DNA from: a virus
Lineage: Duplodnaviria; Caudoviricetes
Length of the DNA stretch: 61,949 nucleotides
Reading direction: 5' to 3' (one strand)
IMG/VR virus record: IMGVR_UViG_3300015245_000719
Location: 1 to 61,949 of that record
The position numbers were made by a program, and so were the translations under genes. Shown here piece after piece: positions 1 to 57,003 of this stretch. Below the pieces are notes generated by a model. The model ran no database searches. It saw only the letters and a program-made list of their open reading frames with translations, and was not told the origin of the DNA. How positions within the stretch are numbered: the stretch's first letter is position 1; the number at the start of each line of letters is the position of its first letter.

Positions 1-219
1 ATGCGCGCCCTCCTCTCCATCCTTACCCTCGCGCTCGCGAGTTGCGCCAGCGTGGACAGCGTGGATCTGAGCAAGGTTGACCAGGCGTGCGGGCGCGCGT
101 GCACCCAGGACTACTCTACCTGCAACGACAAGTGGAGCTTCACGCCGGTCATGCGCCACAACGAATGCGTCGGCGCGCTAAAGGCATGCGTCTCGACGTG
201 CCCGTCCCGTCACTCCTGA
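1..219 (+). CDS. Small Cys-rich lipoprotein
   Basis: Hydrophobic signal ending in lipobox LAS|C, then six more Cys. Converges on the giant gene with a 10-nt overlap. Upstream context is outside the window. Confidence 0.7.
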   Translation: MRALLSILTLALASCASVDSVDLSKVDQACGRACTQDYSTCNDKWSFTPVMRHNECVGALKACVSTCPSRHS

Positions 220-6200: not shown

Positions 6201-9200
6201 CGCCAGGTTCTCATCGTCCACCTCGAAGTTGACCTTGAGCATGGACATGTCCTTCTCGCGGCGGGACATCTGGCCGTCCTCGACCAGCATGTTCGCCAGC
6301 ACGCTCTGCATCTGCGGGCCGCCGGTCGAGAGCATTTCCACGAGCTGCGCCGGGTCCTGCGCCAGCAGGCCGATGTTCGTGCGCATGTAGATCGGCATGT
6401 TGTTCGTGCGCTTGGCGTAGGTCGCCGACAGGTACACGACGGGCGGCGCGTAATCTGAGAACTGCCCCTGCATCCACTCGCCGACGCCTGAGTCGCCGCT
6501 TGCATTGTGGGACTCGTCGAGGATCAGGACGGCCTTCCCGGTCGAGAACAGCTTCGCCAGCGCGGAGCGGCGCGCGTTCTCCTGGTTGATCTGCGCGTAG
6601 GTCGTGAAGATCGCCGAACGGCCCTCCGGGAGGGTGCCGGTATTGACGATATGCTCGACTCCCTGCTTCGCTGCGCCCTTCTTGTTCGTGAAGAGCTTCG
6701 TCTTGCCGCTCGGGTCGCGTGGGTCGATGACCTCGCCATCCGTGTTCGTGAGGAACGGCGAGATCTCCGGATGCCCGATCGCGATCATGTCGCGGTACAT
6801 GTCGCTGTACAGGGTGTCGCTGTAGGACATGAACACCGGAACCTTATCGTTGCGGATGGACCAGTTGATCAGGGAGGCGGCCTGCCGCCCCTTGCCGACG
6901 CCGGTAGCGTCTCCGATGATCATGCCGCGGCCGTCCTTCAGCTGAAGGACGGCGAGCGCGATGTTGTCGATCTGGTAGCCGGACAGGGCGTCGAACATCT
7001 TCTCCTTCGTCCCGTACCCGAGCTCCTTCTGCACGAAGTCGTCGATGCTCTCGGAGCCCTGCTCGTGGATCTTGTCCTCGGCCACGTCCAGGGCGTCGCG
7101 CAGCGCGCGCGCCTGGTTGCGCGGCACCAGGATGCCGAGGTTCTGTCCCTGCGACTTGCCCTCGTACACCGTCTGGTTGTTGTTGTCGTGCCCGACGTCG
7201 GAAGGAGACATGACCTTCGAGGGCGGGTACATCTTGTCGAGGATGTACACCTTCGCGTATTTCTGGATTCCCTCGATCGCCTCGCCGAAGCGCTGAGAGA
7301 CGATGCGCTTGAACTCGAGCACAGCTCGCGTGGCGTCTGCAACCTTGGCGCGAATGGCCTGCCAGACGTTCTCGAACACCTTGCGAAGCTGCTGGTAGAT
7401 GGTTGCATCGACGGTCCCGAGCGCTTCTTCGTACAGCTTCCTGCTGAACACGGCTCCTCCGCTGTCTTTCTCGCCGATGATCTTCTTGATCTCGTCGAAT
7501 TCTTTTGAAAAATCCAGGCCGAGCGAACGCTCAGCCGCGGTTACATTCGAGCTGCTTTTCGGTGCGCGCTTGCCACCTCCGCGAGGACCGCGTGGTGGGC
7601 CTTTCGGTCCGGGGTTGCCCTCGACGGGCGCCCCGGTCTTTTCGTCAGGTACTAGGACCGACTCATCGTTGAAGATGCGGTCGATGTCCTCCGGCGAGAG
7701 ACCTTCTAGGCCGGTATCGCTTCCAGAAACTCCGACAGGTCCAGGCTGCTGCTCGCCTCGATTGCTTCCTTCCGGAGCTCCGGGTTCGTTTCCGGTTCCG
7801 CCGACGCCGGATCCCCCGCTTGCACCAGGGTTCCCACCCGGCCGCTCGACATCAGCCCCTCCACCCACCCCTGCGGGAACTCCGCCCACAGGATGCTGTT
7901 TTCCTCCGCCTCGAGGTTCGTTTCGACGAGGGCCTTGGCCTCCTTCTTTCCCGCCTTCAGGAGCAGCGACTCCAGCTTCTCCCTGATTGCTTCCCGGTAC
8001 GGCTGGCCCTGCGGGACCACCAACGCCGCTGCGTGGCTCGGCCGGTCCAGCTTCGGAACCCACATTGGCGTTGCCGGTGACAACGGCTTCGCTTGCTCGT
8101 TTTGCGTCCTCGTACTGCCTGTAGAGTGCATCGTACCCCTCCGTTACGCTGTAATTTACGCGCGTGATCGTACCACTGGCCGGCGCAACCTGCGCGGAGC
8201 GCCCGCGGCCGGCAATCGTGATGACTCGAATCGGCCACGCCGCGCCTTGGCGCTCGTAGAAAGAGCCGTCTACCTCGAAGTGCGAAGCGACATTGTAGTG
8301 GCCGTAGAGCCAGTTGAAGAATGGTTTCTCCCGGGAGTTGATCTCCCCTGGAATCCTGTTGGCGCCGATGATCAGCACGGCGCGCCCCTTGTCGAACATG
8401 GCCTCGAGCGCCCGCGCGATGATCAGCTGGTCGATCCTCGTGACCTGGTAGCCGTCCGCGAGCGCGGGCGCCTCCAGCTTCCCGAACGGAGGATTCGCGA
8501 GCACCGCGTCGGCCTCGTCCTTGCCGAATACGTTCTCTTCCTTCGCCTTCACCGCGTCCTTCTGCGTGACGCGCGGGAAGCCGAGGAGCTTCAGATTGAG
8601 CGCCCTGTGCTCGTCCAGCTCGTTCGCGATGACGTTCTTGGGCGTCGCGGTGATGGTGAGCAGCCCGTTCCCGGCAGTGGGCTCGTACACCTTGGTATCG
8701 ACTCCAACGCGCGCGAGCAGCCCGGCCATGTAGGCGATCGGGAGCGGCGTCGAGTATTGCTGCAAGGACGAGCTGGTGGACGTGCGGATGTTCAGCTTCG
8801 GCTGCTTGCGGTACATATCCACCAGGTTGTCGAAGATGCCGCGCTCGTTCGTGCCGGTCGCGCGCCAGTCGATGATCTTCTGCGCGGCGAACTGTCCGAG
8901 GGCTGCCTCGAAGTCCTCCTGCCCCTTCTTCTGAAGGATCAGGTTGCCCTCTACCTCTGTGGGGTCGAGGCGGTGCGCTTGCGCTACCCAGGAGAGCAGG
9001 TCCTTGCCGCTCTCAGGGAACCATCCTTTTCGCAGGTGGAAGAACATGCTCTCGACCATGGAGTCGTTCTTGACCTCGGGGTATTGCACGAGGCCCATGT
9101 CCTCCATGATCTTGTCGATGCGGCCTGAGATCTCCTTGGCCTGCTCGCGCCCGACGGCAATCCTCATCTGCTCGACGTTCTTCGCGCCTTCCTTGACGCG

Positions 9201-12200
9201 CACACCCTCTGGAGTGAACTCCAGGCCAGCGAAGAAGTTCTTGTAGTCCTGGGCGAACAGGCGCCGCTCTTCAGCCTGCGGGTATGCGGTTCCCTTGTAG
9301 CCGTTCGTTTTCGTCATAGCTCCTTCTCGAACGAGAGGTCCGACGAGGTACGGCGATCCGCCCTTCACGAGGTCGAAGAGGTACGCTTCCTCTCCGCGCG
9401 CCACCATTTCTGCGCCCTTCGAGTAGTACGGGTCTGAGCCGTGATCCAGCTTTTGCGCTTCGTTGAGGTAGATGGTGTTCCGCAGCAGACCGCCGCGGTA
9501 TTCCGGGCTCTTCCAGTCAGAGGTCCCTTTCTCGTTCAGCCAGTTGAGGACGCGCTCGCGCGGTGGAACATTGCGGTTCTGGTAGTCGGCGTCTCCGACC
9601 AGGAGCTCGCGGACCTTCGCCTCCATCTTGGCGAAGTTGAAGTATTGGTTGAGAACGTGACGAAGCGCCTCTGAGTACAGCCTCGCTCCGTCCTGCTCGG
9701 AGTGGATCAAGTAGTGCTCGAGCGCGTGCATCCACTCGTGCGAGACGGTACCGTTCCCATTCGTCTTGGTGAGATTGATCACCTCTCCGCCGATGTGGCT
9801 GGTTTCGAAGTGGGCGGCGGCCTTGCTGATCTTCTGCCCGCGCGAGCCGAACGCCAGCGCGAGCTTCCCGCCGAGTCCAACCACCTTCGGGTCGATCCCG
9901 AGGTTGTCGGACATGTCCATCAGGGAGTCGTAGGCTAGGTTCAGGTTCTCCTGGCGCTCGAGCTGGTTGACCCACTCGCCGAACTCGACCTCGCGGAAGC
10001 CGAACGCGGACTTGAAGTCGGCCTCGTTGACGTTCTGGCCCTTTCGGTAGTCCTTCATCCCGACGCGGGTGATGTTCTCCAGGCGAGGCGGGACCTTCGG
10101 GTCCTTCTTGACCACGCGGTTCGTCTGGTCGATCTCGTTCTCGTTCGGCTGGAATGCTTTCAGGTAGTAGTCGAGCATCGCGTACAGATCGTTGCTCATC
10201 ATGCGCTGAAGCTCGCTGCCGAATTTCGTCGCGGTGTGCGTACTTCCGTAGCTATTCGCCTCGCCCTCTGTGAACGCTTCGTTCTTGATTGCAGCGTTCG
10301 CCTCGGCAACGTTCTTGGCGTCCTTCGTCAGCTCTTCCAGCTTGGAGAGCATCCCGATATAGCGCTCGGCCTGCGCCTTGACTTCGGAGTATTCCGTGTC
10401 GATCAACGCCTGCTTGAGGCTCTTGCCCCACCGCGTATTGCCCTGCTGGCCGCCGAAGCCTGGGCCTGCGAATTCGAGGAACGTTTTCAGCTTCTCGCGA
10501 ACAGCCTCGAGGTAGAGCATCGTCCCGAAGGTCGCGTCGGGGCGCTCGATCGTGAAGTGGTTCGCGACCTTCGCCTCGTCGATCAGCTTGTCGATGTCCT
10601 TCTCTCCCTCGCCGGTTGGCTCGGAGAGACGCAGAGTTCCGCCAGCAGGCTTGCCTCCGACGACGCCCGTGTCATGGATGTCGCTCTTCTGCGGCCGGTA
10701 CATCGTGTAGAGCTGGATGCGCGCGACGCCCTGCTCGGGCTGGAGCCGGTCCGTGACCTTGAAGCCCATCTTCTTCATCACGCTCTCGATGGGCTTCTGG
10801 TTCTCGACCGTCACGGACATCTGGACGATTCCCTCGTCGAGGATGGTTGCGCCGTCCTCGAAGGTGGGCGTGAGCTCGGCGGCGCCGTAGATATGATCGG
10901 TGAGCGCCTTGTTGTTGCGCTCGGCGATCATCTTCACCAACGGGTCCACCGGCGGCTTCGGCGCCTTCGGGGCCTTTGGCTCTTTCGGCGCCTTCGGTTC
11001 CTTGGGCGCCTTCGTCTCCTCCGGTGTGGCAGGCGGCTGCTCGCCGGGCGTCTCGGGTGTCGCCGGCGCCTCGGGCGTCGCGGGCGCGCCGGGCGCTTCT
11101 CCGCCGGTCACGCCCTCGTTGTTGCCGTGGATCTTCTTCGCGTTCTGTGCTACGCGCTCCAGGCGGTCCAGGTTCTCGCCGAACGGCGCCTCCTGGCCGA
11201 TGCGCTTGCGGATGTTCGCGGCCCGGCGCTCGTCGCCGATGCTGTCGTAGATCTTCGCGATGCTCTCGAGCCGCTGGTCGCGCTCGCTCAGTTGTACACC
11301 GCCGTTGGGTGCCTCCGCGGCGGGCGTGGCAGGCCCCCCTTCGACATGCTCCGGCGCTTCTGGTCCAGCGCTATTGCCACCGCCTGTTTGTCCGCTTTCT
11401 CCTTCCCGAACTTGTCCTGTGTCCGCTGGTACGTGTTCCCCTGGTGCAGCTCCTCGATGTTCTGGCCCACCACCTTGTTCGACGTTCCCTTCTCCAACGG
11501 CATTGCTCTCTCCCTGTGATTGCGGGGCCGCGCCGCCTTCAACGCCGGCGCCCTCCCCTTGTTGTTGGGTCCCGCCTTCCTGCGATTCAGCGGGCGCGCC
11601 CGGAGCTACAGGTTCCGCAGCCGGGGCCTCCGGTAGTTCCGGCGTCTGTTCGGCGCCGGCCGGTAGTCTCGGTGTCTTGCTGAATGTTCCCGCCGCGATG
11701 GCGGCCTTGAATTCCGGTACGGACAGCTGACGCATGCTGCCGAAACCTTTCCATCCCGCCTCGTAGTTCGCGAGGTAGCCCTTCTTGGCTGCGCGCGCGG
11801 ACTGGAAGCCGACCATGATCTTGTACTCGTCGTGATCGCCGCTCTCGGGGTCCACCTGGTCGATGGCGAACACGGTCGAGCTGTTCGGGTGCGGCCCGAT
11901 GAACACGTCCACCTTGTCGCCGTCGCTGCCGACAGTGCCCTCGATCTCGCCGTAGTGGTTGGCCATCGTGACGGACCACTCCTTGCCGGTCTTGTCCGTC
12001 CCGCGGCGCACGCTCCCCTTCGGGTTCTCTATAGCGATGTCGAGACCGTGGAAGTTGACGACGCCCTTGTTGTACTTGCCGGTATCCTTCTCCTCCTCGG
12101 TGGGGTTCTTGTCGGTGAATCCTGCGGCGTTCTCGACGTCCGCCTTCGTAGGCGCGCCCTGCTCGGGCGCCGCCGGAGCTGCTGGCGCGGGCTCGGCTTG

Positions 12201-13802
12201 CGGAGGTGTCTCCGCAGCTGGTGCCGGAGCTGGCGGCGGAGGCGGAGCGGCGTGCTCGCCGCCGCCCGTCATCGCACCGAAGCCGGCGCCGGTCGGGGCC
12301 GCGGCAATAGCGCTCCCGATGGAGTTGTTCCATACGCCATCCATCAGGTCCTTGCCTGGGTTCGCGTGCTGCTGCTCCGCTACGTTCGAGAGGAACTGCT
12401 CGAACCATCCCTGCGTGAGCTCGGTTGGCGTCTCGATCGCGAGGCCGTGCATCGCCTCCTTGAAGCGCGTCATGCCCGAGCCGCCGCGCGTCATCACCTT
12501 CGCGACCTGGGAGCCGACGTAGCCATCGAAGCCTGCGCCAAGGAGCGCGGTAGCCGCGCCGACCTGCCACAGGGTTTGGATGCCGGCGGAGTTCGAGATC
12601 TCGGCGCGCGCCTTCGCGCGGTCGCCGTGGGACTTCACGAGCGCAGCCTGGTACTCCGGAGCCTGCTCGAGCACGCTCTCCGGGAGCTTCGCGATGGAGT
12701 CCTCGACCTGCTGCCCCTGCTGGCCGCCGGCGATCAGGCCCTCGCCCGCGCCCCCGAGTGCGATGGCGCTGTACGTCGCAGCCTTGATCGCCGCCTTCTC
12801 TGCGGCTGCCCTCGCTGCGAGGGCCGACAGGCCCAACGTCTGCGACTTCGCGAGGGACGTGCGGAAGGCGACAGTTGCGGCGAACTTCGCGCCGACGCCC
12901 GCCACCGGGAGCGTAGCCAACGTGGACGGCAGCGAGTTGACGATGCCAGAGTAGTACGCGCGCGGATCTGACCACGCCTCTCCGAAGGTCTCGCCCTTCT
13001 GGCTCGAGATCCATTCTTTCTGCGACGCGTCGCGCATGTCCGGCGACAGCTTGTCCCCGTAGTAGTCGGAGACGTCCTGCATGATGCCAGACAGGCTACG
13101 GCCAAGATGCTCTTCCGAGAGCCGGTTGATCTCGCCGCCGCTCACCTTGTCGGCGGCGTATGAGAGCCCCTGCACGGCCTGCGCTGACCCCTGGCCGAGC
13201 AGGTTCAGGGTGTCAGAAATAATGCCCGGTTTTTCTGACGGAGCAGCCTTGACTGGCTCCTCCGGGTCCGCTACGAAGTCGGTGAACGCGCCGGACTGCG
13301 CCGGCCCGGCGATGTTGCGGTTGACGCCGGCGACGTACTGCGGCACAGAAACGCCGTTGCCGTCGCGGATGTGCCCCATGCGGCTCACGTCGCCGCCGTA
13401 CTGGTCGATCAGCTTGGGGTCGGTGAAGTAGGCGGCCGTCTGCGCGTCGGGGTTGCTCGGGTAGCGGTCGGCGTTCTGCTTGATCAGCTTCGCGGCGGCG
13501 CGCGCGTTGTCGTTCGGGTCGTCGATGTTGCCGTCGGGCATGAGGCCGCCGAACGTGGCGGGCATGACCTGGAAGCCGCCGCGTGCGCCGTTGACGCTCG
13601 TGCGCGGGTTGCGCCCGCTCGAGCTCTCCATCTGCCAGTGCGCGAGGACGCGCTGAGGATCTGCGCCCTCTTCCTTCGCGATGCGGATTACGTCATCGCG
13701 CGTGATGCTCGTGGGGGTCTGAGCCTGCGATACGGGGGAAGAGACCGGCGCGTCGGGCGAGCCTGGGACGTTCTCGACGAAATCGGTGAAGCCGGTTGAC
13801 AT
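210..13802 (-). CDS. Giant DarB-like polyvalent virion protein (~4530 aa): lytic transglycosylase, PPase-like, LPD1 peptidase, N6-adenine MTase, Strawberry-notch helicase, zincin, PLxRFG domains
   Basis: Start moved to ATG 13802 (GGGAG upstream). Motifs: MESS...GGFQVMPATF; IENPKGS...HYGEIEGT.G.DGDKVDVFIG; VEFGEW...HEWMH; EPTAGNG...NPPF; GDATGVGKGR...DESH; HEVKGH; YFPLSRFG. Confidence 0.92.
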   Translation of the reverse strand: MSTGFTDFVENVPGSPDAPVSSPVSQAQTPTSITRDDVIRIAKEEGADPQRVLAHWQMESSSGRNPRTSVNGARGGFQVMPATFGGLMPDGNIDDPNDNARAAAKLIKQNADRYPSNPDAQTAAYFTDPKLIDQYGGDVSRMGHIRDGNGVSVPQYVAGVNRNIAGPAQSGAFTDFVADPEEPVKAAPSEKPGIISDTLNLLGQGSAQAVQGLSYAADKVSGGEINRLSEEHLGRSLSGIMQDVSDYYGDKLSPDMRDASQKEWISSQKGETFGEAWSDPRAYYSGIVNSLPSTLATLPVAGVGAKFAATVAFRTSLAKSQTLGLSALAARAAAEKAAIKAATYSAIALGGAGEGLIAGGQQGQQVEDSIAKLPESVLEQAPEYQAALVKSHGDRAKARAEISNSAGIQTLWQVGAATALLGAGFDGYVGSQVAKVMTRGGSGMTRFKEAMHGLAIETPTELTQGWFEQFLSNVAEQQHANPGKDLMDGVWNNSIGSAIAAAPTGAGFGAMTGGGEHAAPPPPPAPAPAAETPPQAEPAPAAPAAPEQGAPTKADVENAAGFTDKNPTEEEKDTGKYNKGVVNFHGLDIAIENPKGSVRRGTDKTGKEWSVTMANHYGEIEGTVGSDGDKVDVFIGPHPNSSTVFAIDQVDPESGDHDEYKIMVGFQSARAAKKGYLANYEAGWKGFGSMRQLSVPEFKAAIAAGTFSKTPRLPAGAEQTPELPEAPAAEPVAPGAPAESQEGGTQQQGEGAGVEGGAAPQSQGESNAVGEGNVEQGGGPEHRGAAPGEHVPADTGQVREGESGQTGGGNSAGPEAPEHVEGGPATPAAEAPNGGVQLSERDQRLESIAKIYDSIGDERRAANIRKRIGQEAPFGENLDRLERVAQNAKKIHGNNEGVTGGEAPGAPATPEAPATPETPGEQPPATPEETKAPKEPKAPKEPKAPKAPKPPVDPLVKMIAERNNKALTDHIYGAAELTPTFEDGATILDEGIVQMSVTVENQKPIESVMKKMGFKVTDRLQPEQGVARIQLYTMYRPQKSDIHDTGVVGGKPAGGTLRLSEPTGEGEKDIDKLIDEAKVANHFTIERPDATFGTMLYLEAVREKLKTFLEFAGPGFGGQQGNTRWGKSLKQALIDTEYSEVKAQAERYIGMLSKLEELTKDAKNVAEANAAIKNEAFTEGEANSYGSTHTATKFGSELQRMMSNDLYAMLDYYLKAFQPNENEIDQTNRVVKKDPKVPPRLENITRVGMKDYRKGQNVNEADFKSAFGFREVEFGEWVNQLERQENLNLAYDSLMDMSDNLGIDPKVVGLGGKLALAFGSRGQKISKAAAHFETSHIGGEVINLTKTNGNGTVSHEWMHALEHYLIHSEQDGARLYSEALRHVLNQYFNFAKMEAKVRELLVGDADYQNRNVPPRERVLNWLNEKGTSDWKSPEYRGGLLRNTIYLNEAQKLDHGSDPYYSKGAEMVARGEEAYLFDLVKGGSPYLVGPLVREGAMTKTNGYKGTAYPQAEERRLFAQDYKNFFAGLEFTPEGVRVKEGAKNVEQMRIAVGREQAKEISGRIDKIMEDMGLVQYPEVKNDSMVESMFFHLRKGWFPESGKDLLSWVAQAHRLDPTEVEGNLILQKKGQEDFEAALGQFAAQKIIDWRATGTNERGIFDNLVDMYRKQPKLNIRTSTSSSLQQYSTPLPIAYMAGLLARVGVDTKVYEPTAGNGLLTITATPKNVIANELDEHRALNLKLLGFPRVTQKDAVKAKEENVFGKDEADAVLANPPFGKLEAPALADGYQVTRIDQLIIARALEAMFDKGRAVLIIGANRIPGEINSREKPFFNWLYGHYNVASHFEVDGSFYERQGAAWPIRVITIAGRGRSAQVAPASGTITRVNYSVTEGYDALYRQYEDAKRASEAVVTGNANVGSEAGPAEPRSGVGGPAGPAVPGSNQGEAGVAAPEGGKEGGQGPRRNEPRGGGKQHPVGGVPAGVGGGADVERPGGNPGASGGSGVGGTGNEPGAPEGSNRGEQQPGPVGVSGSDTGLEGLSPEDIDRIFNDESVLVPDEKTGAPVEGNPGPKGPPRGPRGGGKRAPKSSSNVTAAERSLGLDFSKEFDEIKKIIGEKDSGGAVFSRKLYEEALGTVDATIYQQLRKVFENVWQAIRAKVADATRAVLEFKRIVSQRFGEAIEGIQKYAKVYILDKMYPPSKVMSPSDVGHDNNNQTVYEGKSQGQNLGILVPRNQARALRDALDVAEDKIHEQGSESIDDFVQKELGYGTKEKMFDALSGYQIDNIALAVLQLKDGRGMIIGDATGVGKGRQAASLINWSIRNDKVPVFMSYSDTLYSDMYRDMIAIGHPEISPFLTNTDGEVIDPRDPSGKTKLFTNKKGAAKQGVEHIVNTGTLPEGRSAIFTTYAQINQENARRSALAKLFSTGKAVLILDESHNASGDSGVGEWMQGQFSDYAPPVVYLSATYAKRTNNMPIYMRTNIGLLAQDPAQLVEMLSTGGPQMQSVLANMLVEDGQMSRREKDMSMLKVNFEVDDENLARDTRLMDEATNALRTIVRADREFIQWFKQNADRLQDLLPPGSEIVRNKKGEQQSLTHTPFTSVVHNYVKQLLLATKADRAVDKAINQLNTNQKVIIPLENTMESALDHYIGSMALQQGDALDDYSWNPLLMKALERRRAFKYKPPHGGKALEISVPMARMPSHLVRVFTEASEVISKLETPLSASPIDYMRSRLNQYGYYFTGNEDANGNPERKYVKFTESGGKKLRPLRVSEITGRTNIVDYSTGKAVLSNRNKEEADRIGTVRGFNDGSIDAVILNSAGSTGISMHASVEFADKRARHMIILQAAGDISVFQQTLGRVHRTGQIVAPDYTVLATALPSEKRPMAVLKKKMTSLLSNTTSGQSSATDVQAIDFINLYGDEAVTEYLREHEDVADFVNVEIGDEKSTEGVALAASGRVALLSVADQKDFYDQVEHAYNAIINMKNESGTNKLVVRDLDTEAIPEHEQELTSGDGSSIFTRPSSLTHMSMFVQGTRPSPEEVKSAIAEALNGRTPEQILQALEDERTAPFEQAKAAEFNKIEGAGGLNDQLKDETISDARRRDLTAHVQATQKKIANFEGVRRNTLANLRQMKIGYHARLALDDGALPQGVIIGIKSNLPSAGNPWSPSNFVINFMINNENRRASIPLSKIIRDNILDQALRDTSSDDLDFLFKPQKGEISGEKPREMRYYVLGNIPAGYGAANNVGDVVTFTMKGGERRQGLLLPKNFTPSMVQNQDVFLSNRARYGAQYVDGIYDYLTSPSFARDRLSYQDMQGVEQLGVASNDNMVRFVGDSAGPWVDLIIQRVPGAKKLYESKELVAITGDLAAQGKSSFRVNMRDPDRIKAAIKWVAERKGLYVNESQTTTAQKFMSKYEKKYEGAAFSRGAQDKAGQVWEVQKAVNDLKANWTDAPDVEVVATLADLPQQVREQIERENATDVGGVFFGGKVYLVAQNLDAAGAKFTLVHEVKGHYGLRKTFGRGLAEILDQIATARASQVAALLKAQGMPNTPENRSRMAEELLAIMAQSEPKLGFVRRAIAAITQWLRDHGILSKQKITDAEIIRQFLAPAARTVEQGAPASLAPDADAFSNSPLYSRMGDWINEVTKSDSKVGMWSKTIGTQFNLAKNNTQFRHVFEWGQNFLSDIWRNASAAEKVAPTWFKRGWLQGINRKDADAASQYLLHGTLLNKVFSDEQLRSGPTVNTPDGDKVLTPLTEPQVRMYHEAHASVRQALETQANSFIAREAKKTGVSMNRDLNMEDFAADIELQLGERIAEAKGNIDTLRQAQPPGFEFRVEQLKASVRADQKSVAKIGELVQRVNELSNQGYFPLSRFGTHYVAVYKTQKDYEDGNSSHFSLHEGLTSHVANIKSNREETRMRAKFPNAYKIETGTISKNSFRMYDGLNLDALELFAEHLGVANDEVYQEAYKELFSSRSMMKRFINRKGVPGFSQDAYRGLADFIMTNSRAASANDNFPGMGKAVMDIEDGDLRDHAVSLYKYLRDPVEEAHKLRGYLFFHFIGGSLASAVTNLTQTPLITGPFLTKFASLPDVLARLTGAAKDAVLDPFSKKLNGDFVHTGRLWDNLRKAEEDGTTASQEVFQMMGVASGSKLAGNKYSESFLKAWGSMFGYAETFNRRVAYIAAHKIAEANEQLGDPHKFAENAVYETQFLYNKGNRPVLGRGALGSTLMTFKQFSINVLELLHRMPMQQRVYMVVLLLLAAGVEGLPFAEDLEDLIDTIGQRFPDLGLTTNSKKWLDKQSKRILGQFLGNAFVQGLPSAVSPFDVSQRLSMGNLIPGTAFAKVSETDKFKDVRDLIGPAAGLLYGAATGLERAFHGDFLGAAKSALPTAAQNFVKGSEMLARGEARDTRGQFTAKVSPLEAVGKAAGFNPNAVADRQRVTGEIRNDENFIAVTKSALMDEFVNAIRSGDRDDIESVRRKIASWNKSNPTMPIVITPQAMRRRLQLAGMSPDVRSIKLAPRPLRGEVASLLRPPREDTQE
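7706..8131 (-). CDS. Overprinted 141-aa protein nested in the +1 frame of the giant gene
   Basis: GGAGGGG 5 nt before ATG. Genome-typical codons (CTG, GAG, AAG, ATC) in this frame while host-frame third positions become A/T-rich. Helical, globular-looking sequence. Confidence 0.65.
   Translation of the reverse strand: MHSTGSTRTQNEQAKPLSPATPMWVPKLDRPSHAAALVVPQGQPYREAIREKLESLLLKAGKKEAKALVETNLEAEENSILWAEFPQGWVEGLMSSGRVGTLVQAGDPASAEPETNPELRKEAIEASSSLDLSEFLEAIPA
11288..11503 (-). CDS. Overprinted 71-aa basic phage protein (MPLxKG...KQAVAIAL type) nested in the +1 frame of the giant gene
   Basis: AGGGAGAG SD before ATG 11503. MPLEKGTSNKVVGQNIEEL...KQAVAIAL matches a small phage protein pattern I recall as a stand-alone gene (DUF6496-like). 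Confidence 0.75.
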   Translation of the reverse strand: MPLEKGTSNKVVGQNIEELHQGNTYQRTQDKFGKEKADKQAVAIALDQKRRSMSKGGLPRPPRRHPTAVYN

Positions 13803-13866
13803 CTTGTTCTTCTCCCGGCCTGCGCTGCGCAAAGGCGCGCGCCGTCACCGCGGTAGTTGATCTTCC

Positions 13867-25625: not shown

Positions 25626-25655
25626 ATTATGCATCATTGCATAACCCACCGTAAA
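25626..25655 (-). promoter_or_regulatory. Promoter TTTACG-18-CATAAT with operator TTATGCA-N4-TGCATAA
   Basis: Palindrome at 25627-25644 matches the ATGC-N6-GCAT sites of the immunity region; no SD before ATG 25617. Confidence 0.6.
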
Positions 25656-40726: not shown

Positions 40727-40945
40727 TTGAGGCCGAATAGTCACTTTTGCACCACTTTGGGGCATCCAGAACACGCTAGGCGCCTCGATCCCACCTCGGT
40801 TGATACCCCGGCACGAGGCACCTATGCATAGAAGTCGCACATCCAGACGCACGCGGAGGCGAGGCAGGAGCGACCTAAAACCGTCAGTTTCATAGGCCGA
40901 GCGTGGCAGAGTTGGCAGGGTGACGCAATTTATTTCAATCCACTA

Positions 40946-40975
40946 TTGCATTTCTACAAGTCATTGGTATATCAT
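40946..40975 (+). promoter_or_regulatory. Early sigma70-like promoter TTGCAT-18-TATCAT
   Basis: AT-rich upstream tract; lies just before the first early gene. Confidence 0.6.
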
Positions 40976-46519: not shown

Positions 46520-46916
46520 GGCCGCACTGTGCATGGCGTTGAACATTTACCACGAGGCCGACCTGCTGCACGAGCCGTTTTCTGGCCGTCTCGCAATCGG
46601 TTTCGTCACGAAGAACCGCGCAGACCTGCATGGGACGACGGTCTGTTGGGAGGTCATGCGCTACAAGCAGTTCTCGTGGACGCTCGACCCGATGAACCTT
46701 CGCGCGATCCCCGGCGGGCAGGCGTGGAACGAATCCATCCAGGCCGCGGAGCTAGTGCTCTCCGGACTTCCAGACATCACCAGCGGCGCCACGCACTTCC
46801 ACGCGACCTACGTCAGCCCGGTGTGGATCAAGGGAATGCGCCGCATCGGACGATTCGGCAGTCACATTTTCTACAAGGAGAAGTCCGTCATACATGCCTT
46901 CGGGAAACTTCAATGA
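46509..46916 (+). CDS. SleB-like cell wall hydrolase (Hydrolase_2)
   Basis: NIYHEA, VT.NR, KQFSW, GATHFHA.YV.P.W, G.HIFY. Confidence 0.88.
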   Translation: MLAEAALCMALNIYHEADLLHEPFSGRLAIGFVTKNRADLHGTTVCWEVMRYKQFSWTLDPMNLRAIPGGQAWNESIQAAELVLSGLPDITSGATHFHATYVSPVWIKGMRRIGRFGSHIFYKEKSVIHAFGKLQ

Positions 46917-47482
46917 GCGAAGGCAAGGCCAGAGTGCCGACCGAGAAGGAGCGCAAGCGCCTGTTCGAGCTGGAGAGCGCGCAGCTTCGCAACACCGCGA
47001 TGCTGTACCTCAGCTACGGCTGCGGACTACGCGTGCACGAGATCGCCAAGCTGAACCTCGGGAGCGTGATCGACGAGGACGGCGACGTAATCGACTCGTT
47101 CTCCATCAACGGCAAAGGCGAGAAGGTGCGCGACGTGTACCTGAACAACAAGAAGGTGCGCGACGCGCTGGCCGAGTACGTGGCCCACCTCCGAACGAAG
47201 GGCGACGTGTACCTCGACCGCCCCCTATTCATGTCGTATCGGCGCGAGCGGATGTCTCCGAACACTTTGCAGCAGGTGTTCGCGTGGATGTACGAGCGCG
47301 CCGGACTGAAGGGATGCAAGTCGCACAGCGGACGGCGCTACTTCGCGACGAAGCTGCTGAACGAAGGCATCGACATCAGGAGCGTGCAGGCCCTAATGGG
47401 GCACGCGAACATCAACCAGACCGCCGAGTACGCCGACACCGATCCGGTGAAGCTGAAAGCGGTCGTTGCAAAGGTGATCTGA
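46913..47482 (+). CDS. Tyrosine recombinase, catalytic domain only (189 aa)
   Basis: GLRVHE (R), GKG.K (K), HSGRR (HxxR), MGH, AEY (Y); ATGA coupling. Confidence 0.88.
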   Translation: MSEGKARVPTEKERKRLFELESAQLRNTAMLYLSYGCGLRVHEIAKLNLGSVIDEDGDVIDSFSINGKGEKVRDVYLNNKKVRDALAEYVAHLRTKGDVYLDRPLFMSYRRERMSPNTLQQVFAWMYERAGLKGCKSHSGRRYFATKLLNEGIDIRSVQALMGHANINQTAEYADTDPVKLKAVVAKVI

Positions 47483-50160: not shown

Positions 50161-52197
50161 CTAGACCGACTTCTTGACGAGGCGAGAAGGTGTCCTCGTG
50201 AACACCTCCTTGAGCTTGCGATCGGGCGTCCTGAACTGGCCGCGGTGCACCCTCCCCTCGTCCACGAGCCGAAGCAGCACGCGCGCTAGGGCGTCCGGCC
50301 CTAGCCCCTTGGGGAAGTCCTGCACCAACCTCATGGAGTGGAAGGCGGTGTAGTGGCCGTTGATGGCGGTGTTGACGACGATCCCGTTCTTGTCGCAGTA
50401 GTCCAGGCAGGCGATCACCTGCGCGTCCTGAGAGCTCGTCCTGATCGCGTCGGCAGCCTGCTTGCCCACGTTCTCGCGCTCACCGGCCAGGATCGGCACG
50501 CCCTCGATCCACTCTAGGGTCACGGGCGCCGCGCGCGGCCCCAGGTTCGCCTTGGCGTGATAGAGGGTCATCGTGCCCGCTTCCTCGTCTGGAATGAGCG
50601 CCAGGCGCGACCGGACGCTGTTGTGCCAGGCGGTGCTGCCCGAGTAGGCTTCCGGGTCGGCCCGGGCTCCGTTCTTCGCGCTCTCCTTGTTGATGTGCGC
50701 GAGGAGCAGCACGGCCCTCTTGGGGCGGGCGAGGCGGCTCCGCAGAGAGCGGATGAACGCCCGCACGCGCGGGCGCTTGATCTCGTCGTCGTCGAACGCG
50801 TCGGAGGCGTTGTCCACGATCACGAGGCCCCCATCGACCAGCCGTTCGACCAGCTCCGAGAGCGCGGCCATCATCGGGGTCTCGAGGTCGGCCGAGAGCA
50901 TTGCGCCGCGGCGGTCCCGGTGCAGGGCGGAATCCAGGTCAGAGGCATCCAGCACGGACAAGCGCCCCTTCAGCTCGTTCGGGTCGATGTCCAGGCTTAT
51001 GCAGATGCGAAACACCCGGTTCCTGATGATCTGCGCGCCGTCCTCGGCCGAGAAGAACAGCACCGGGGCTGCGCGGGTTTCGATCCCGAACACCGGGCGC
51101 CCGAGCGCGACGTGCACGGCGATCAGGAGCGCGATGTAGGACTTCCCTCCCCCGCCGTGCCCGGCGAGGAGCGTCACCTCGCCCTCGGGAATCCAGTCGT
51201 GCACGAGGTAGCGCTGCGGCTCCTCGCGGTCCAGAGCGTCGAGGCTCACGATGTACTGCTCCAGGCCCTCGATCTTCGGGGGCTCAAGCGGCACGGCAAC
51301 GTGATTTCGTTCTTCGTGCGTGCGCTTGACCGATGCGATAGTGGTGTTCAGCTCCGCGTCGGAGAGCGACTGCGGGTTGTTCGCGTTCCAGTCATCCAGA
51401 ATCTTCTTCGTCTCGCGGAGCGACAGCCCACGTTGAAACGCGGTTCCCGCCAGGGACGCAGCGGCGTTGTTCCGCCCGCCCACCGGCACCTGCTGGTCGA
51501 AGCGCGCTGGCTCGTGCACGCGGTCCGCGTCGAAGCCGGCGAGGTTCCCCTTCCCTACTGGCGTAGCGGCTCCGATGTTCGCGCGCCGGTAGCCCTCGAT
51601 CGCAGCGACCTGCGCGGCCTCGAGCATGGGAAGATCGGACGCAGTGACGTGGTTGATCTCGGGGTCGATCTCGTCCGTGTAGTAATTGCCCGAGCTGTGC
51701 CGCGAGCCGCCGGCGACGACGTAGCCTCCCAGGCCGCGCGTGTCGATCTTCGCGTGCGGGTCGGCGCTGTTCCGGATCTCGACGAATGGGTTGCGCCGAT
51801 AGTAGAAGTGCATGCCCTTGCCGGTCTTGACGCGCCAGGGCGTGTGCGGAAGGCTCGTGCGGCACCAGCTCACCGACTCCGCGCTGTCCGCGTCCACGAC
51901 GATCAGCTCGCCGCAGGCAAGGCCGATGTTCGCTTCGGGCCACTGCGTCCACCACGCGCGCACCATCGACTCGGTGGGCGCCTCGGTCTGGTACGGCTTC
52001 CATGCGACGCGCGGCTGCTTAGGCCATTCGGCTGTCGCCTCCGCTATGTCCCCTTCGAAACGGTCCTTGATAATCCATACAGGTGGCGCCTCGCCGTAGG
52101 CCCCGAGCGGGAAGATATGCAGTCCCTTATCCAGTAGCTCAAGGGCGCGCTCCATGAGGAGGCCCTTGTTTTGCTCTTTTGAATCAGGGGTATGCAT
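50161..52197 (-). CDS. Primase-polymerase / PriCT / RecA-family (AAA_25) helicase fusion
   Basis: ANIGLACG.LIVVDAD, TGKGMHFYY, DTRG.GGYVV, GGRNN, GHGGGGKS, LVIVDN, SGSTAW.NSVR. Confidence 0.9.
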   Translation of the reverse strand: MHTPDSKEQNKGLLMERALELLDKGLHIFPLGAYGEAPPVWIIKDRFEGDIAEATAEWPKQPRVAWKPYQTEAPTESMVRAWWTQWPEANIGLACGELIVVDADSAESVSWCRTSLPHTPWRVKTGKGMHFYYRRNPFVEIRNSADPHAKIDTRGLGGYVVAGGSRHSSGNYYTDEIDPEINHVTASDLPMLEAAQVAAIEGYRRANIGAATPVGKGNLAGFDADRVHEPARFDQQVPVGGRNNAAASLAGTAFQRGLSLRETKKILDDWNANNPQSLSDAELNTTIASVKRTHEERNHVAVPLEPPKIEGLEQYIVSLDALDREEPQRYLVHDWIPEGEVTLLAGHGGGGKSYIALLIAVHVALGRPVFGIETRAAPVLFFSAEDGAQIIRNRVFRICISLDIDPNELKGRLSVLDASDLDSALHRDRRGAMLSADLETPMMAALSELVERLVDGGLVIVDNASDAFDDDEIKRPRVRAFIRSLRSRLARPKRAVLLLAHINKESAKNGARADPEAYSGSTAWHNSVRSRLALIPDEEAGTMTLYHAKANLGPRAAPVTLEWIEGVPILAGERENVGKQAADAIRTSSQDAQVIACLDYCDKNGIVVNTAINGHYTAFHSMRLVQDFPKGLGPDALARVLLRLVDEGRVHRGQFRTPDRKLKEVFTRTPSRLVKKSV

Positions 52198-52224: not shown

Positions 52225-52440
52225 CTACAATCTGCGCAACGGTCGGGAGATCAGGACGCTTGGGTCAGATTTCATGACACGATCATATAGAGTGAGCAGC
52301 GTTGAGCCGACGGAGTACCGCGGCTCGCTCCCGGAGCGCATCCGACTCACCGTTGATTGGCTGCATCCGAGTGCCGCGGCTAGAGAACGTTCGGTGTACC
52401 CGCCACGCTCGAGTAAATACGGGATGATTTTTTCGAACAT
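52225..52440 (-). CDS. Cro-like HTH regulator
   Basis: TERSLAAALGCSQSTVSRM..G.EPRYS.G; promoter TTGACG-17-TATTTT at 52452-52480. Confidence 0.82.
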   Translation of the reverse strand: MFEKIIPYLLERGGYTERSLAAALGCSQSTVSRMRSGSEPRYSVGSTLLTLYDRVMKSDPSVLISRPLRRL

Positions 52441-52479
52441 GAACGTTGTCCAAAATACAGGAGTCCGTAGTGTTCGTCA

Positions 52480-52493
52480 ATGCACAGTTGCAT
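52480..52493. promoter_or_regulatory. Operator ATGCA-N4-TGCAT between the divergent regulators
   Basis: Palindrome abutting the leftward -35. Confidence 0.7.
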
Positions 52494-52511
52494 AACGGGA
52501 GAGCAAACCAA

Positions 52512-52928
52512 ATGGCTAAAGCCACGCAAGAGCCGGAGCTTGGCCCGCTCGCGAGAAGCCTCGCTCGCTTGATGGCCAGTCATCTGGTGAAGGGAAAGCC
52601 GATTTCTGCGAATGAGCTGTCGAAGCGGAGCAAGGTTCCGCAATCGACGATCACCAGGATGCTCTCGGGGTATGTGACAGATCCCCGCGCGAGCTCGCTG
52701 GAGCGGATCGCTGCTTACTTCAACGTCACGCTCGCCGCGTTGCGCGGTGAGGATGTAGTGCCGGTTGTCGCCGGTCAGCAGCTACTTCACCGGCTCTCGC
52801 CGGACGAGCTCGAGCTGCTGATGATCTACCGTTCCGCGAACCCCACGGGGCAGGTCGCCATCGCCGGCGCTGCCTCGGGGATCGCAAGCGGCGTAAAAGC
52901 CGCGGAGGTAGTTAAGAAGATACGCTAG
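52512..52928 (+). CDS. CI-like Xre repressor without an S24 autoprotease domain
   Basis: GGGAGAG SD; SANELSKRSKVPQSTITRMLSG...P....LERIAAYFNVT; divergent from the cro-like gene. Confidence 0.85.
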   Translation: MAKATQEPELGPLARSLARLMASHLVKGKPISANELSKRSKVPQSTITRMLSGYVTDPRASSLERIAAYFNVTLAALRGEDVVPVVAGQQLLHRLSPDELELLMIYRSANPTGQVAIAGAASGIASGVKAAEVVKKIR

Positions 52929-52931
52929 TAG

Positions 52932-53132
52932 TTAGGCAACCTTCGGAACGAGTCGAAGCACAAAGCCGCCTACCAGGGCGGCTTTTTGTTGCGGGTACTT
53001 CACCGCGATGCACTGCGCCGTTGCGATGATCGACTCTTGTACGTGCGGTAGCGCACCGCGGTAGGTCTGAATCAGCTCCGCTTCCTGCGGAGTCAGTAAT
53101 CTCATTTCTGCCAAGATTTTTCTTACGCCCAC
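52932..53132 (-). CDS. Stand-alone paralog of the repressor C-terminal domain, candidate antirepressor
   Basis: GGGAGG SD plus GTG 53132; LTPQEAELIQTYRGA aligns with repressor LSPDELELLMIYRSA. Confidence 0.65.
   Translation of the reverse strand: MGVRKILAEMRLLTPQEAELIQTYRGALPHVQESIIATAQCIAVKYPQQKAALVGGFVLRLVPKVA
52962..52990 (+). terminator. Intrinsic terminator for the repressor transcript
   Basis: AAAGCCGCC-taccag-GGCGGCTTT followed by TTGTT. Confidence 0.7.
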
Positions 53133-53223
53133 GACCGCCTCCCGTGTTGAAGGTGAACCAGCAAACTCCGTAGTTATTGTGGTTGCTGTGGTGTCGCTAG
53201 ATTGCGACACTCTCGTCATTGGG

Positions 53224-53252
53224 AATCTACGCCCAAGGTATGCCAGTGTCAA
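53224..53252 (-). promoter_or_regulatory. Sigma70 promoter TTGACA-17-TAGATT
   Basis: Consensus -35; oriented toward 52932-53132. Confidence 0.7.
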
Positions 53253-53296: not shown

Positions 53297-53350
53297 ATGC
53301 GCTAATGCAAATACGCATTGACGGTGACCACGTCCTATGCGAACATGCAT
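53297..53350 (+). promoter_or_regulatory. Rightward promoter (TTGACG, extended -10) flanked by ATGC-N6-GCAT operators
   Basis: Operators at 53305-53318 and 53337-53350, imperfect copy at 53297-53310. Confidence 0.65.
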
Positions 53351-53353
53351 TGC

Positions 53354-54468: not shown

Positions 54469-55224
54469 ATGGCAGTCAGTCTCGCAAGTCTGAAGAGGGG
54501 TCGCAACGTCCGGCCGCCCCGCATCGTCATCTACGGACCGCACGGCCTGGGCAAGTCATCGTTCGGCGCGAGCGCGCCGGCCCCGGTGTTCATCCAGACC
54601 GAGGACGGCCTGGGCACGCTGGACGTGACGTCATTCCCGCTCGCGCAGACCTTCGCCGACGTGAACGGCGCGCTGTCCACGCTCTACACCGACGACCACG
54701 AGTTCAGCACCGTGGTCATCGACTCCGCCGATTGGCTCGAACCGCTCATCTGGAAAGAGACCTGCGCGCTTCACGGCAAGGCCGACATCGAGGAGTTCGG
54801 CTACGGCAAGGGCTACGGATTCGCGCTCGACCAGTGGCGCAGCGTGCTCAGCGGTCTCAACGCTCTGCGCGACACGAAGAACATGGCCTCCATCGTCACC
54901 GCGCACTGCCAGATCAAGCGCTTCGACTCACCCGAGGTCGAGCCCTACGACCGCTACACGCCGAAGCTGCATAACTCGGCCTCCGCGCTGTTGCAGGAGT
55001 GGGCCGACGCGGTGTTCTTCACCAACTGGAAAACCGTCATCCAGAAGGAGGACGTCGGCTTCAACAAGAAGGTGGCGCGCGGCGTCACCACCGGGCAACG
55101 GATGATGTACACGACCGAGAAGCCCGCGTACCTCGCCAAGAACCGATACAGCCTCCCCGAGGAAATGGATCTCTCGTGGCAGGCATTCGCCGACGCGCTC
55201 ACCGCCTCGGCCGCGCAAACGTAA
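54469..55224 (+). CDS. Sak4-like AAA_24 ssDNA-annealing ATPase
   Basis: IYGPHGLGKSS, VVIDSADWLE, GYGKGY, EWADAVFF, AKNRY.LP. Confidence 0.9.
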   Translation: MAVSLASLKRGRNVRPPRIVIYGPHGLGKSSFGASAPAPVFIQTEDGLGTLDVTSFPLAQTFADVNGALSTLYTDDHEFSTVVIDSADWLEPLIWKETCALHGKADIEEFGYGKGYGFALDQWRSVLSGLNALRDTKNMASIVTAHCQIKRFDSPEVEPYDRYTPKLHNSASALLQEWADAVFFTNWKTVIQKEDVGFNKKVARGVTTGQRMMYTTEKPAYLAKNRYSLPEEMDLSWQAFADALTASAAQT

Positions 55225-56335: not shown

Positions 56336-56470
56336 ATGCCACCGCTTTTTCTTCGCTACGTCTGGTACATCCCGTTCCTCTCCGCCGTGTGGCTAACCAA
56401 GCGTGACACACAGGAGATCTACACGCGGGGGTTCTACATCTTCGGCGTCCGGGTGGGCGTGTGGTCGTGA
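56336..56470 (+). CDS. Small hydrophobic protein (44 aa)
   Basis: GAGGGGG SD; read manually; GTGA-coupled to the next gene. Confidence 0.45.
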   Translation: MPPLFLRYVWYIPFLSAVWLTKRDTQEIYTRGFYIFGVRVGVWS

Positions 56471-57003
56471 GGGTCATCTACGCCATCCTCGTCTACGTCG
56501 CCGTCATCGTGGCGATAGTGTTCGGCGCTTCGAGCGTCGCGCACGCCGACACCTGGGTATCGCTCGGAGGCGTCTCGCATCACTTCGAGCGCTCCACGCC
56601 GCACAACGAGGAGAACTACGGCATCGGCCTCGAGCAGGACACCAGCGTTGCGCACCTGCGGCTGATCGTCGGCGAGTACAAGAATTCCTTCTGGCGGGAG
56701 TCGTTCTACGCCGGCTTCTCCTACACGCCGCTGTCGTTGGGGCCTGTGCGCTTCGGCCTCATGGGAGCAGCCCTAACAGGCTACGGGAACATGACCTGCG
56801 AGACGCACCAGTCTGGACCAACCGCCACCGCGAGCCCAATGACCACCACCACCACGAGCTGTGCCTACCACGAGCGCGTGCGCGCCTACGGCGTCCCGTT
56901 CGCGCAGATCGAGGGCGAGCGCTTCGGGGTCAACATGCTCGCCGCTCCGCCCATCGCAGGCAAGGGCGGCGTCGTGGCCGTCCAGTTCAAGGTGAAGTTC
57001 TGA
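56467..57003 (+). CDS. PagP-like outer-membrane beta-barrel protein
   Basis: Signal peptide (AHA), SHHF...NE.NYGIG, YKNS...YAG, LTGY, C-terminal VQFKVKF beta-signal. Confidence 0.65.
   Translation: MRVIYAILVYVAVIVAIVFGASSVAHADTWVSLGGVSHHFERSTPHNEENYGIGLEQDTSVAHLRLIVGEYKNSFWRESFYAGFSYTPLSLGPVRFGLMGAALTGYGNMTCETHQSGPTATASPMTTTTTSCAYHERVRAYGVPFAQIEGERFGVNMLAAPPIAGKGGVVAVQFKVKF

Follow-up and report, generated by a model that had tools for sequence, protein, structure and literature searches.

We analyzed a complete provirus record from IMG/VR (IMGVR_UViG_3300015245_000719; Duplodnaviria, Caudoviricetes), which has 61,949 bases, 63.7% G+C, and a CheckV completeness of 99. We refer to this whole stretch as the window. 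Its immunity region includes a gene for a repressor of 138 amino acids (52512-52928, + strand) and, converging on it, a small open reading frame (ORF) of 66 codons on the - strand (53132-52932, with a GTG start at 53132 and the stop codon TAA at 52934-52932). The stop codons of the two are three bases apart. Short XRE-type repressors, such as those similar to DicA or the Gifsy repressors, have a helical tail at the C-terminus instead of a self-cleaving domain, and the best explanation of these sequences is that the small ORF codes for this tail as a free-standing copy.

The repressor gene is preceded by a Shine-Dalgarno sequence (GGGAGAG at 52497-52503). The protein has an N-terminal helix-turn-helix (HTH) domain (residues 31-76, Pfam HTH_3, E = 1.1e-7), a linker, and a helical tail that spans residues about 88-136 and contains the motif LSPDELELLMIYR. 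Neither Peptidase_S24 nor any other C-terminal family from Pfam was found in it at E <= 1, and the roughly 55 residues that follow the HTH domain are too few for an Ala-Gly/Ser-Lys self-cleavage domain. The AlphaFold2 model of the repressor (mean predicted local distance difference test [pLDDT] of 65.2) has helices at residues 12-26, 33-40, 44-54, 62-77, 88-94, 97-109, 111-125, and 130-136; when this model was compared to the PDB with Foldseek, there was no match at E <= 0.001. The closest relative of the repressor, and the only close one that we found, is a protein that is 76% identical (P0004).

Residues 13-43 of the small ORF align with residues 95-125 of the repressor, with 14 of 31 positions identical (BLASTP, 26.9 bits, E = 2e-5). 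The Smith-Waterman score is 57, as compared to 28.5 +/- 5.1 for shuffled sequences, and none of 3,000 shuffles reached 57. In a six-frame search of the window, the tail and the small ORF were each other's best non-self matches (E = 0.002 and 0.010; the next matches had E = 0.20 and 0.046), and a separate search gave E = 0.009. The likeness is real and beyond chance. This is exactly the alignment that had been quoted in an earlier, sequence-only reading of this DNA. That reading had also stated that the ORF lacks an HTH domain and that the repressor lacks a domain cleavable with RecA, and both statements are borne out: the repressor has no Peptidase_S24 domain (see above), and no family from Pfam (at E <= 1 for the 106-residue open frame or E <= 5 for the 66-residue form), PHROGs, or NCBIfam was found in the small ORF. 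The likeness stops before the HTH domain, as judged by eye: there are no identities upstream of the repressor's linker. Outside of the aligned core, four extra identities (E.VV.V) lie 15 residues upstream in the same register, and KAA and V.K match at the C-terminus. These are suggestive of homology that reaches into the flanks, at a level not established as beyond chance. The AlphaFold2 model of the small ORF (pLDDT of 63.3) has four helices (residues 4-12, 15-26, 29-45, and 47-65), which match, at corresponding positions, the four helices that follow the repressor's HTH domain, although both models are of modest confidence.

Across the 31 aligned codons, the identity at the first, second, and third codon positions is 0.58, 0.65, and 0.35, and the same codon is used at 7 of the 14 identical residues. 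With third positions saturated and only these 7 codons shared, the two copies must have diverged anciently. We considered whether the small ORF is a recent copy of its neighbor's tail, and we rejected this because of the saturation and because tails from foreign regulators score equally high. Yet about 200 bases are still open, and all of the length changes required by the alignment are of whole codons; even the 7-codon insertion that forms a terminator hairpin (described below) is in frame. An open frame despite this divergence favors a coding ORF but is no proof, as the same pattern would be expected with selection on the repressor side alone.

The open frame on the - strand extends from 53252 to 52932 and would encode 106 amino acids from TTG at 53252. 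The plausible starts are GTG at 53132 (66 amino acids) and ATG at 53105 (57 amino acids). Among public gene calls, the 57-residue form is present in protein collections and the 66-residue form is in the ESM Atlas. A Shine-Dalgarno-like hexamer (GGGAGG, 53143-53138, - strand) lies five bases ahead of the GTG. This hexamer falls in the codons R-E-A, which are homologous to the codons G-E-D of the repressor, where the repressor gene has GGTGAGGATGTAGTG (52746-52760). The stretch upstream of the GTG (53133-53252) looks non-coding: its G+C content by codon position is 0.45/0.65/0.47, and its coding score is -0.65. A leaderless form of 95 amino acids and the form of 106 amino acids were therefore rejected; also, the TTG at 53252 belongs to the -35 hexamer of a promoter. 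The small ORF itself has G+C by codon position of 0.66/0.39/0.63 and a coding score of 0.079 bits per codon, higher than in any of the other five frames. The corresponding scores are 0.216 for the repressor and -0.221 for the nearby Cro-like gene, and windows from real genes and wrong frames average 0.64 and -0.70. The core of the small ORF (residues 13-46) scores 0.49, versus 0.36 for the repressor's tail.

On the repressor's own strand, the start of the linker (52746-52760) reads GGTGAGGA, and a GTG (Val83) follows four bases on. This spot corresponds to the GGGAGG and GTG of the small ORF. As a matter of pure inference, an internal start at Val83 would yield a tail-only product of about 56 amino acids from the repressor gene.

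Promoter, hairpins, and the immunity region

On the - strand, a promoter-like sequence (TTGACA at 53252-53247, a spacer of 17 bases, and TAGATT at 53229-53224) lies 85 bases upstream of the GTG of the small ORF. Transcription would be expected to start near 53217. This is the sole match to the sigma-70 consensus at 10 or more of 12 positions on either strand of the window. Shuffled sequences give 1.28 such matches per record, so the placement of this promoter is notable but the count is not above chance. The ORF had been credited with a TTGACA promoter of its own, and such a promoter is indeed predicted (10 of 12 positions, unique in the window). No E. coli-type LexA box was apparent by eye at the promoter, with no dedicated scan made.

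Just downstream of the expected transcription start is a perfect inverted repeat, GTGTCGC-N6-GCGACAC (53191-53210), which is the only perfect copy in the window. As RNA, it would fold with -11.8 kcal/mol (z = -3.15). It might form a hairpin near the 5' end of the RNA or be bound by a regulator.

Codons 47-60 of the small ORF contain a two-way terminator hairpin (52954-52993). Read on the + strand (-25.9 kcal/mol, z = -3.72), the hairpin precedes TTTTTGTTG and is predicted to end the repressor transcript; read on the - strand (predicted -21.8 kcal/mol, z = -2.31), it precedes TTTGTGCTT, which is a weaker U-tract. Because the repressor's terminator lies within the 3' coding part of the small ORF, the two transcripts must overlap, which agrees with the earlier description of convergent genes with antisense overlap. 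The predicted transcript of the small ORF (about 230-270 nucleotides) is unusually structured: it folds with -108.8 kcal/mol (z = -3.32), and none of 200 shuffles fold as well. In Rfam, this transcript had no match at the gathering level; there was a single sub-threshold row at 21.3 bits, versus a gathering score of 59.

The order of genes in the immunity region, from left to right, is primase-helicase, Cro-like, repressor, small ORF, and a rightward early operon. The Cro-like HTH gene (52225-52440, - strand, 71 amino acids) is divergent from the repressor gene and matches phrog_6831 (E = 2.7e-11). Downstream of it is the primase-helicase gene (50161-52197, - strand), with matches to Prim-Pol, PriCT_1, and AAA_25. 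The rightward operon includes a Sak4-like ATPase (54469-55224), proteins of 203 and 178 amino acids with no assigned function, a single-stranded DNA-binding protein (SSB), a Cas4-type exonuclease, and others. It also includes an ORF (56461-57003, + strand) that matches a PagP-like lipid A acylation protein in PHROGs (E = 9.8e-21); this is possibly a lysogenic-conversion gene, which would fit a Gram-negative host.

Operator-like 16-mers (AATGC-N6-GCATT) occur four times in the window with at most one mismatch, and three of the four are in the immunity region. O1 (AATGCACAGTTGCATA, 52479-52494) lies between the repressor and the divergent Cro-like gene and overlaps the -35 hexamer (TTGACG, 52480-52475) of a leftward promoter-like site. 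O2 (53304-53319, a perfect match) and O3 (53336-53351) precede the rightward early operon and are at least 52 bases upstream of the small ORF's -35 hexamer. Elsewhere in the window, an operator-like site with one mismatch (AATCCACTATTGCATT, 40937-40952) lies where a gap separates the small-terminase gene from the rightward genes, and a palindromic site with two mismatches (TATGCATCATTGCATA, 25628-25643) lies in a gap inside the structural block; either may be due to chance.

Two other features of the provirus stand out. A single open frame of 4,540 codons at the end of the structural block (210-13832, - strand) takes up one fifth of the provirus and has gene-like codon statistics (G+C by position of 0.63/0.43/0.86). 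Also, the integrase gene (46529-47482, + strand) is in the middle of the record and not at an end. There are no tRNA genes in the window.

The tail in other regulators

We searched 400 genomes from one class with a profile of the tail (A4). The matches included complete short regulators in which this motif is again C-terminal, although the HTH domains that it is joined to are quite different (for example, L025 ends with ...LLLSPDEAALLDNYRRSPPEGKAAIKATSAALAQ). Two of these tail-bearing regulators match the NCBIfam model for DicA (NF007257) over nearly their full length, including the tail, although both are below the cutoff of 101 bits (L028, E = 2.2e-16, 59.9 bits; L026, E = 1.5e-14, 53.9 bits). 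With a wider profile (A5, with the motif L[ST]P[DE]E..LL..YR), 33 of 401 genomes of the phylum had matches at E <= 0.01, at 39 places. We examined 22 of these places; the other 17 were partial matches to the motif in frames of over 170 amino acids, along with matches that had no assigned locus, and three of the matches with no assigned locus were read directly. In 16 of the 22, the motif is at or near the C-terminus of a frame of 113-203 amino acids. Another is cut off by the end of the contig, one is an 88-residue ORF with no recognized HTH domain, and four are doubtful. In 15 of the 18 frames that were scanned with Pfam, the tail is preceded by HTH_3, HTH_19, or Phage_CI_repr. The small ORF, which has no HTH domain, departs from the rest of the family in this respect.

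The small ORF and the repressor are themselves rows of A5 and so match it by construction. However, the small ORF's pairwise scores against the tails found with profiles (44-63) are support that is independent of those rows. Among 25 tail-bearing proteins, the small ORF scored highest against P0004 (73), followed by two unrelated regulators (63 and 61), and its own neighbor was fourth (57). This ranking implies that the small ORF belongs to the tail family as a stand-alone member that has diverged, and that it is not a close copy of the neighbor's domain. It may perhaps have come from this repressor's lineage. Thus, of the sequence-only claim that the small ORF encodes only the repressor's "own" C-terminal domain, the stand-alone tail homolog stands, while the specificity for this repressor does not: the tail is a family-wide module.

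Searching the PDB with the repressor, with DicA (which had matches in its N-terminal domain only), and with the tail profile did not identify a solved structure that includes the tail by sequence. The matches of the tail profile were summed 10-residue matches to proteins with "LTPEQV" repeats, and we rejected them as an artifact.

In two unrelated genomes, neighboring regulators form pairs with nearly identical tails (L033, 1024-1971, - strand; L063, 1216-2837, + strand), for example, PSLTPDESTLLEAYRSTDEPGRAALLATAKAL versus ...LLDAYR...AKAV. In the L033 pair, the N-terminal Phage_CI_repr domains have visibly diverged, and one partner in the L063 pair has no Pfam family at E <= 0.001. These pairs suggest shared partners, mixed oligomers, or gene conversion. 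In another genome (G416), almost the same tail occurs in four matches (L035, L062, and contigs C89 and C192); the two frames that we read, those of L035 and L062, end with ...AYRAADEAGRAALLITAKAMARKP. Because nearly the same tail follows visibly different N-termini in these two frames, the tail seems to be a swappable module.

Among the places that we examined, the only other candidate for a stand-alone tail is the 88-residue ORF mentioned above (L042, 1456-1722, - strand), which has the tail motif HRLSSDEAELLAQYRALTENDQVA and no Pfam HTH domain at E <= 0.001. It is chromosomal and lies between open frames of about 435 and 368 amino acids, not beside a repressor.

The putative small protein is known from this one provirus only. 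Searching viral contigs with the repressor or with another alignment (A1) did not identify any relative of the locus. Genome contigs gave one weak match and metagenome contigs gave four, all to the HTH domain only. When phage DNA was searched with the locus, the Sak4-like gene alone had matches, in two Synechococcus phage records. Of 53 viral loci with a Sak4-like gene, none has a relative of the repressor, the small ORF, the Cro-like gene, or the genes for the 203- and 178-residue proteins, and none has the tail. A tblastn search of GenBank phages at E <= 10 found nothing for the small ORF or the repressor's tail, although matches of about 27 bits would be undetectable in a database of that size. 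A pattern scan with the tail alignment found nothing. In the ESM Atlas, the best feature score for the small ORF was 0.86, below the bar of 0.9, and the structure rows had no family. The repressor's one distant relative of full length (L015) is followed, on the same strand, by a gene for a nuclease-like protein instead of a stand-alone tail. A keyword search found no published description of a stand-alone DicA-type tail, which is no proof that none is in print.

What the small ORF may do

We tentatively favor the idea that the small ORF is a genuine gene whose small protein product binds to the tail of the repressor and weakens repression, by analogy to SinI acting on SinR or AimX acting on AimC, although we would not be surprised if it were wrong. 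The repressor's tail would be its self-association surface. The small protein, with the same helices, would pair with this tail, and because it has no DNA-binding domain, the mixed complexes would have one such domain too few. Occupancy of the three operator-like sites would then drop, and the operons for Cro-like/primase and for Sak4/SSB would fire. The outcome would be a route to induction that does not require RecA-stimulated cleavage. The effect may be reinforced by convergent transcription that starts at the strong promoter of the small ORF and runs into the shared terminator and then the repressor gene. We favor this explanation because of the homology, the matching helices, the absence of an S24 domain, the open frame, the coding signal, the promoter, the public gene calls, and the precedents. 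This type of mechanism is already known (SinI and AimX).

Several observations weigh against a small anti-repressor protein. No operator-like site overlaps the promoter of the small ORF (the nearest begins at 53304), and an anti-repressor that was made constitutively would undo lysogeny. A transcript that terminated at the hairpin would have no stop codon. Both the GTG and the Shine-Dalgarno-like hexamer have homologous codons in the linker of the repressor, so they are not independent evidence for a start. The overall coding score is weak: a score this low is seen in 5.7% of windows from real genes, and one this high in 3.9% of wrong-frame windows. Among 1.84 billion representative proteins, HMMER found no relatives of the small ORF at E <= 0.001 besides itself and a spurious match of 14 residues to a protein of 1,064 amino acids, and a word search of 5.8 billion clusters found nothing at 58-186 amino acids and only the ORF itself at 31-100 amino acids. 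The repressor's close relative P0004 has no called partner that could be detected in these protein searches. Synteny, which had been proposed as a check, did not help: a second, stand-alone tail within about 1.5 kilobases was found at none of 37 other tail-bearing loci. The small ORF is no closer to its neighbor's tail (score of 57) than to those of unrelated regulators (61-63), and the neighbor's tail is closer to at least 10 other tails than to the small ORF. Finally, this explanation presumes that the tail serves in self-association.

Many of these observations would be expected if the small ORF is a relic: the 3' end of a repressor gene that was left behind by a module swap or an ancient inverted duplication. 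It would have no function as a protein today, its frame would be open by luck, and the appearance of a ribosome-binding site would be inherited. The ORF is an orphan in both the protein and the GenBank phage searches, its hexamer and GTG resemble linker codons, its coding score of 0.079 bits per codon is borderline, it contains the repressor's terminator, and the 37 other loci offer no comparable arrangement. Furthermore, this record, with 64% G+C, has many open frames of around 100 codons. Counting against a relic, about 200 bases have remained free of frameshifts and stop codons, with length changes of whole codons only, while the identity at third positions fell to 0.35. In addition, the detectable likeness, by eye, does not extend into the HTH domain, the strongest promoter match in the record is directed into the small ORF, and the core scores as coding (0.49). 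We consider a relic unlikely, but it is close behind the anti-repressor; the two explanations that follow are further behind. If the ORF is a relic, then the locus is ordinary.

Instead, the small protein might be expressed in the lysogen as a decoy that binds other partners of the tail. It could stabilize lysogeny by soaking up anti-repressors of phages that share the cell or are entering it, or it could poison the tail-bearing repressors of competing phages. This would account for a promoter that is under no recognizable operator and for an apparently self-contained unit with its own promoter and terminator, which is typical of genes that are expressed from prophages. It also fits with the ORF resembling its neighbor's tail no more than it does foreign tails, and with a common partner for the tail that unrelated regulators share (the patterns in G416, L033, and L063); the Gifsy anti-repressors are described as acting on non-cognate repressors (PMC3121763). 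On the other hand, we did not find an anti-repressor similar to Rem or GfoA in the window (the best tblastn hit for Rem had E = 0.079). The ORF being an orphan counts here just as it does for an anti-repressor, and binding is a proposal in both. Overall, a decoy seems rather improbable. Slightly less probable is that the locus acts as RNA and that the frame is incidental: the transcript of about 230-270 nucleotides, or convergent transcription itself, would disturb the transcription or termination of the repressor gene or the stability of its mRNA. The strong promoter match, the unusual structure of the transcript (z = -3.32, 0 of 200 shuffles), its 5' hairpin, and the two-way terminator that it has in common with the repressor gene are as expected for such a device, and the weak U-tract on the - strand makes read-through into the repressor gene plausible. 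However, the transcript does not belong to an Rfam family (21.3 bits versus 59 for gathering); if termination works, then the overlap with the repressor mRNA is just the hairpin; and a role for the RNA would leave the retention of a tail-family protein sequence unexplained.

The anti-repressor protein and the RNA might also act together, as a two-layer switch from a single duplicated module. A free copy of the tail would be expressed from the element's strongest promoter, and its mRNA would be coupled to the repressor's terminator, so that termination versus read-through at the shared hairpin would determine both the production of a complete, stable tail mimic and the antisense invasion of the repressor gene. 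Such a RecA- and LexA-independent route would be undescribed for DicA-type repressors. We think that this combination is quite doubtful.

Many prophages have short repressors that lack a self-cleaving domain, but how the tail acts and how repression is switched off is known for just a few (Gifsy, Qin/DicA, and the arbitrium phages). If the small protein does pair with the tail, then the DicA-type tail is an interaction surface. There would also be a SinI-like, paralog-based anti-repressor in proteobacterial phages, and stand-alone tails would provide a simple rule for finding such regulators in sequence data. As a mobile module that is common to regulators with different DNA-binding domains, the tail bears on cross-talk between prophages in the same cell.

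Comparison with known systems

Small proteins of about 80 amino acids that are encoded near a phage repressor and inactivate it, which leads to induction independent of DNA damage, have been described as Qtip and as small-ORF modules of linear plasmid-like vibriophages (PMC10432266; bioRxiv 10.1101/2019.12.16.877910). The locus that we studied is similar in that a small phage protein would be encoded near the repressor. The Qtip-type proteins are reportedly controlled by a dedicated transcription factor, and are not said to be copies of the repressor's own domain.

The repressor itself resembles those of the Gifsy, DicA, and RacR type, which have about 135 amino acids, an N-terminal HTH domain, and no cleavage site; our repressor has 138 amino acids, HTH_3, and no S24 domain. 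These repressors are described as uncleaved and as inactivated by small anti-repressors that are encoded elsewhere (PMC3121763; PMC10448788). E. coli DicA has the tail motif LSPxELELL: LSPKELELLELF (DicA residues 85-96) versus LSPDELELLMIY (repressor residues 95-106) is identical at 8 of 12 positions (E = 0.005). The small ORF is identical to DicA (translated from K-12) at 8 of 22 positions (E = 0.008). However, the repressor does not match the NCBIfam model NF007257 at E <= 1. The known anti-repressors (GfoA, GftA, FsoA, and Rem) differ from the small ORF in that they are described as lying outside of the immunity region and as mostly under the control of LexA, and Rem of E. coli has no likeness to the tail. 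The window does not seem to contain a counterpart of Rem (the best tblastn match covered 19 residues), and the 32 of its ORFs that were scanned with PHROGs included no member of an anti-repressor family. Also, the complex of GfoR with GfoA is described as an apparent A2B2 heterotetramer and not a split dimer (PMC3121763).

A mechanism like the proposed one is that of AimX of the arbitrium phages, a small helical protein that is described as binding AimC's C-terminal oligomerization domain, replacing the second subunit, and thereby blocking dimerization and DNA binding (bioRxiv 10.1101/2025.11.23.689978). As at our locus, this is a phage system with a short XRE-type repressor. But in that account AimX is not described as a homolog of the AimC tail, whereas here there is likeness by sequence. 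Also, the AimX systems are from Bacillus phages, and AimX is described as being under the control of AimR/AimP. The authors themselves liken AimX and AimC to SinI and SinR (bioRxiv 10.1101/2025.11.23.689978).

SinI is described as mimicking the oligomerization helices of SinR, so that a heterodimer forms and DNA binding stops (PMC3163267). In B. subtilis, SinI/SinR (and SlrA/SlrR) combine a short HTH repressor that has a C-terminal helical segment for self-association with a separate copy of about 57 amino acids of that segment alone. The sizes and the predicted helix-turn-helix layout of the tail match those of the small ORF and the repressor. The arrangement differs: sinI and sinR share a strand, with sinI upstream, whereas our two genes converge, and the setting is a provirus, probably from Pseudomonadota, instead of a Bacillus chromosome. 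Neither protein matches the SinI family in Pfam (PF08671), at E <= 1 for the repressor or E <= 5 for the small ORF. So, although the description of the locus as SinR/SinI-like does not extend to membership in that family, it does hold for the central feature: homology to the tail of a repressor in an ORF that has no DNA-binding domain.

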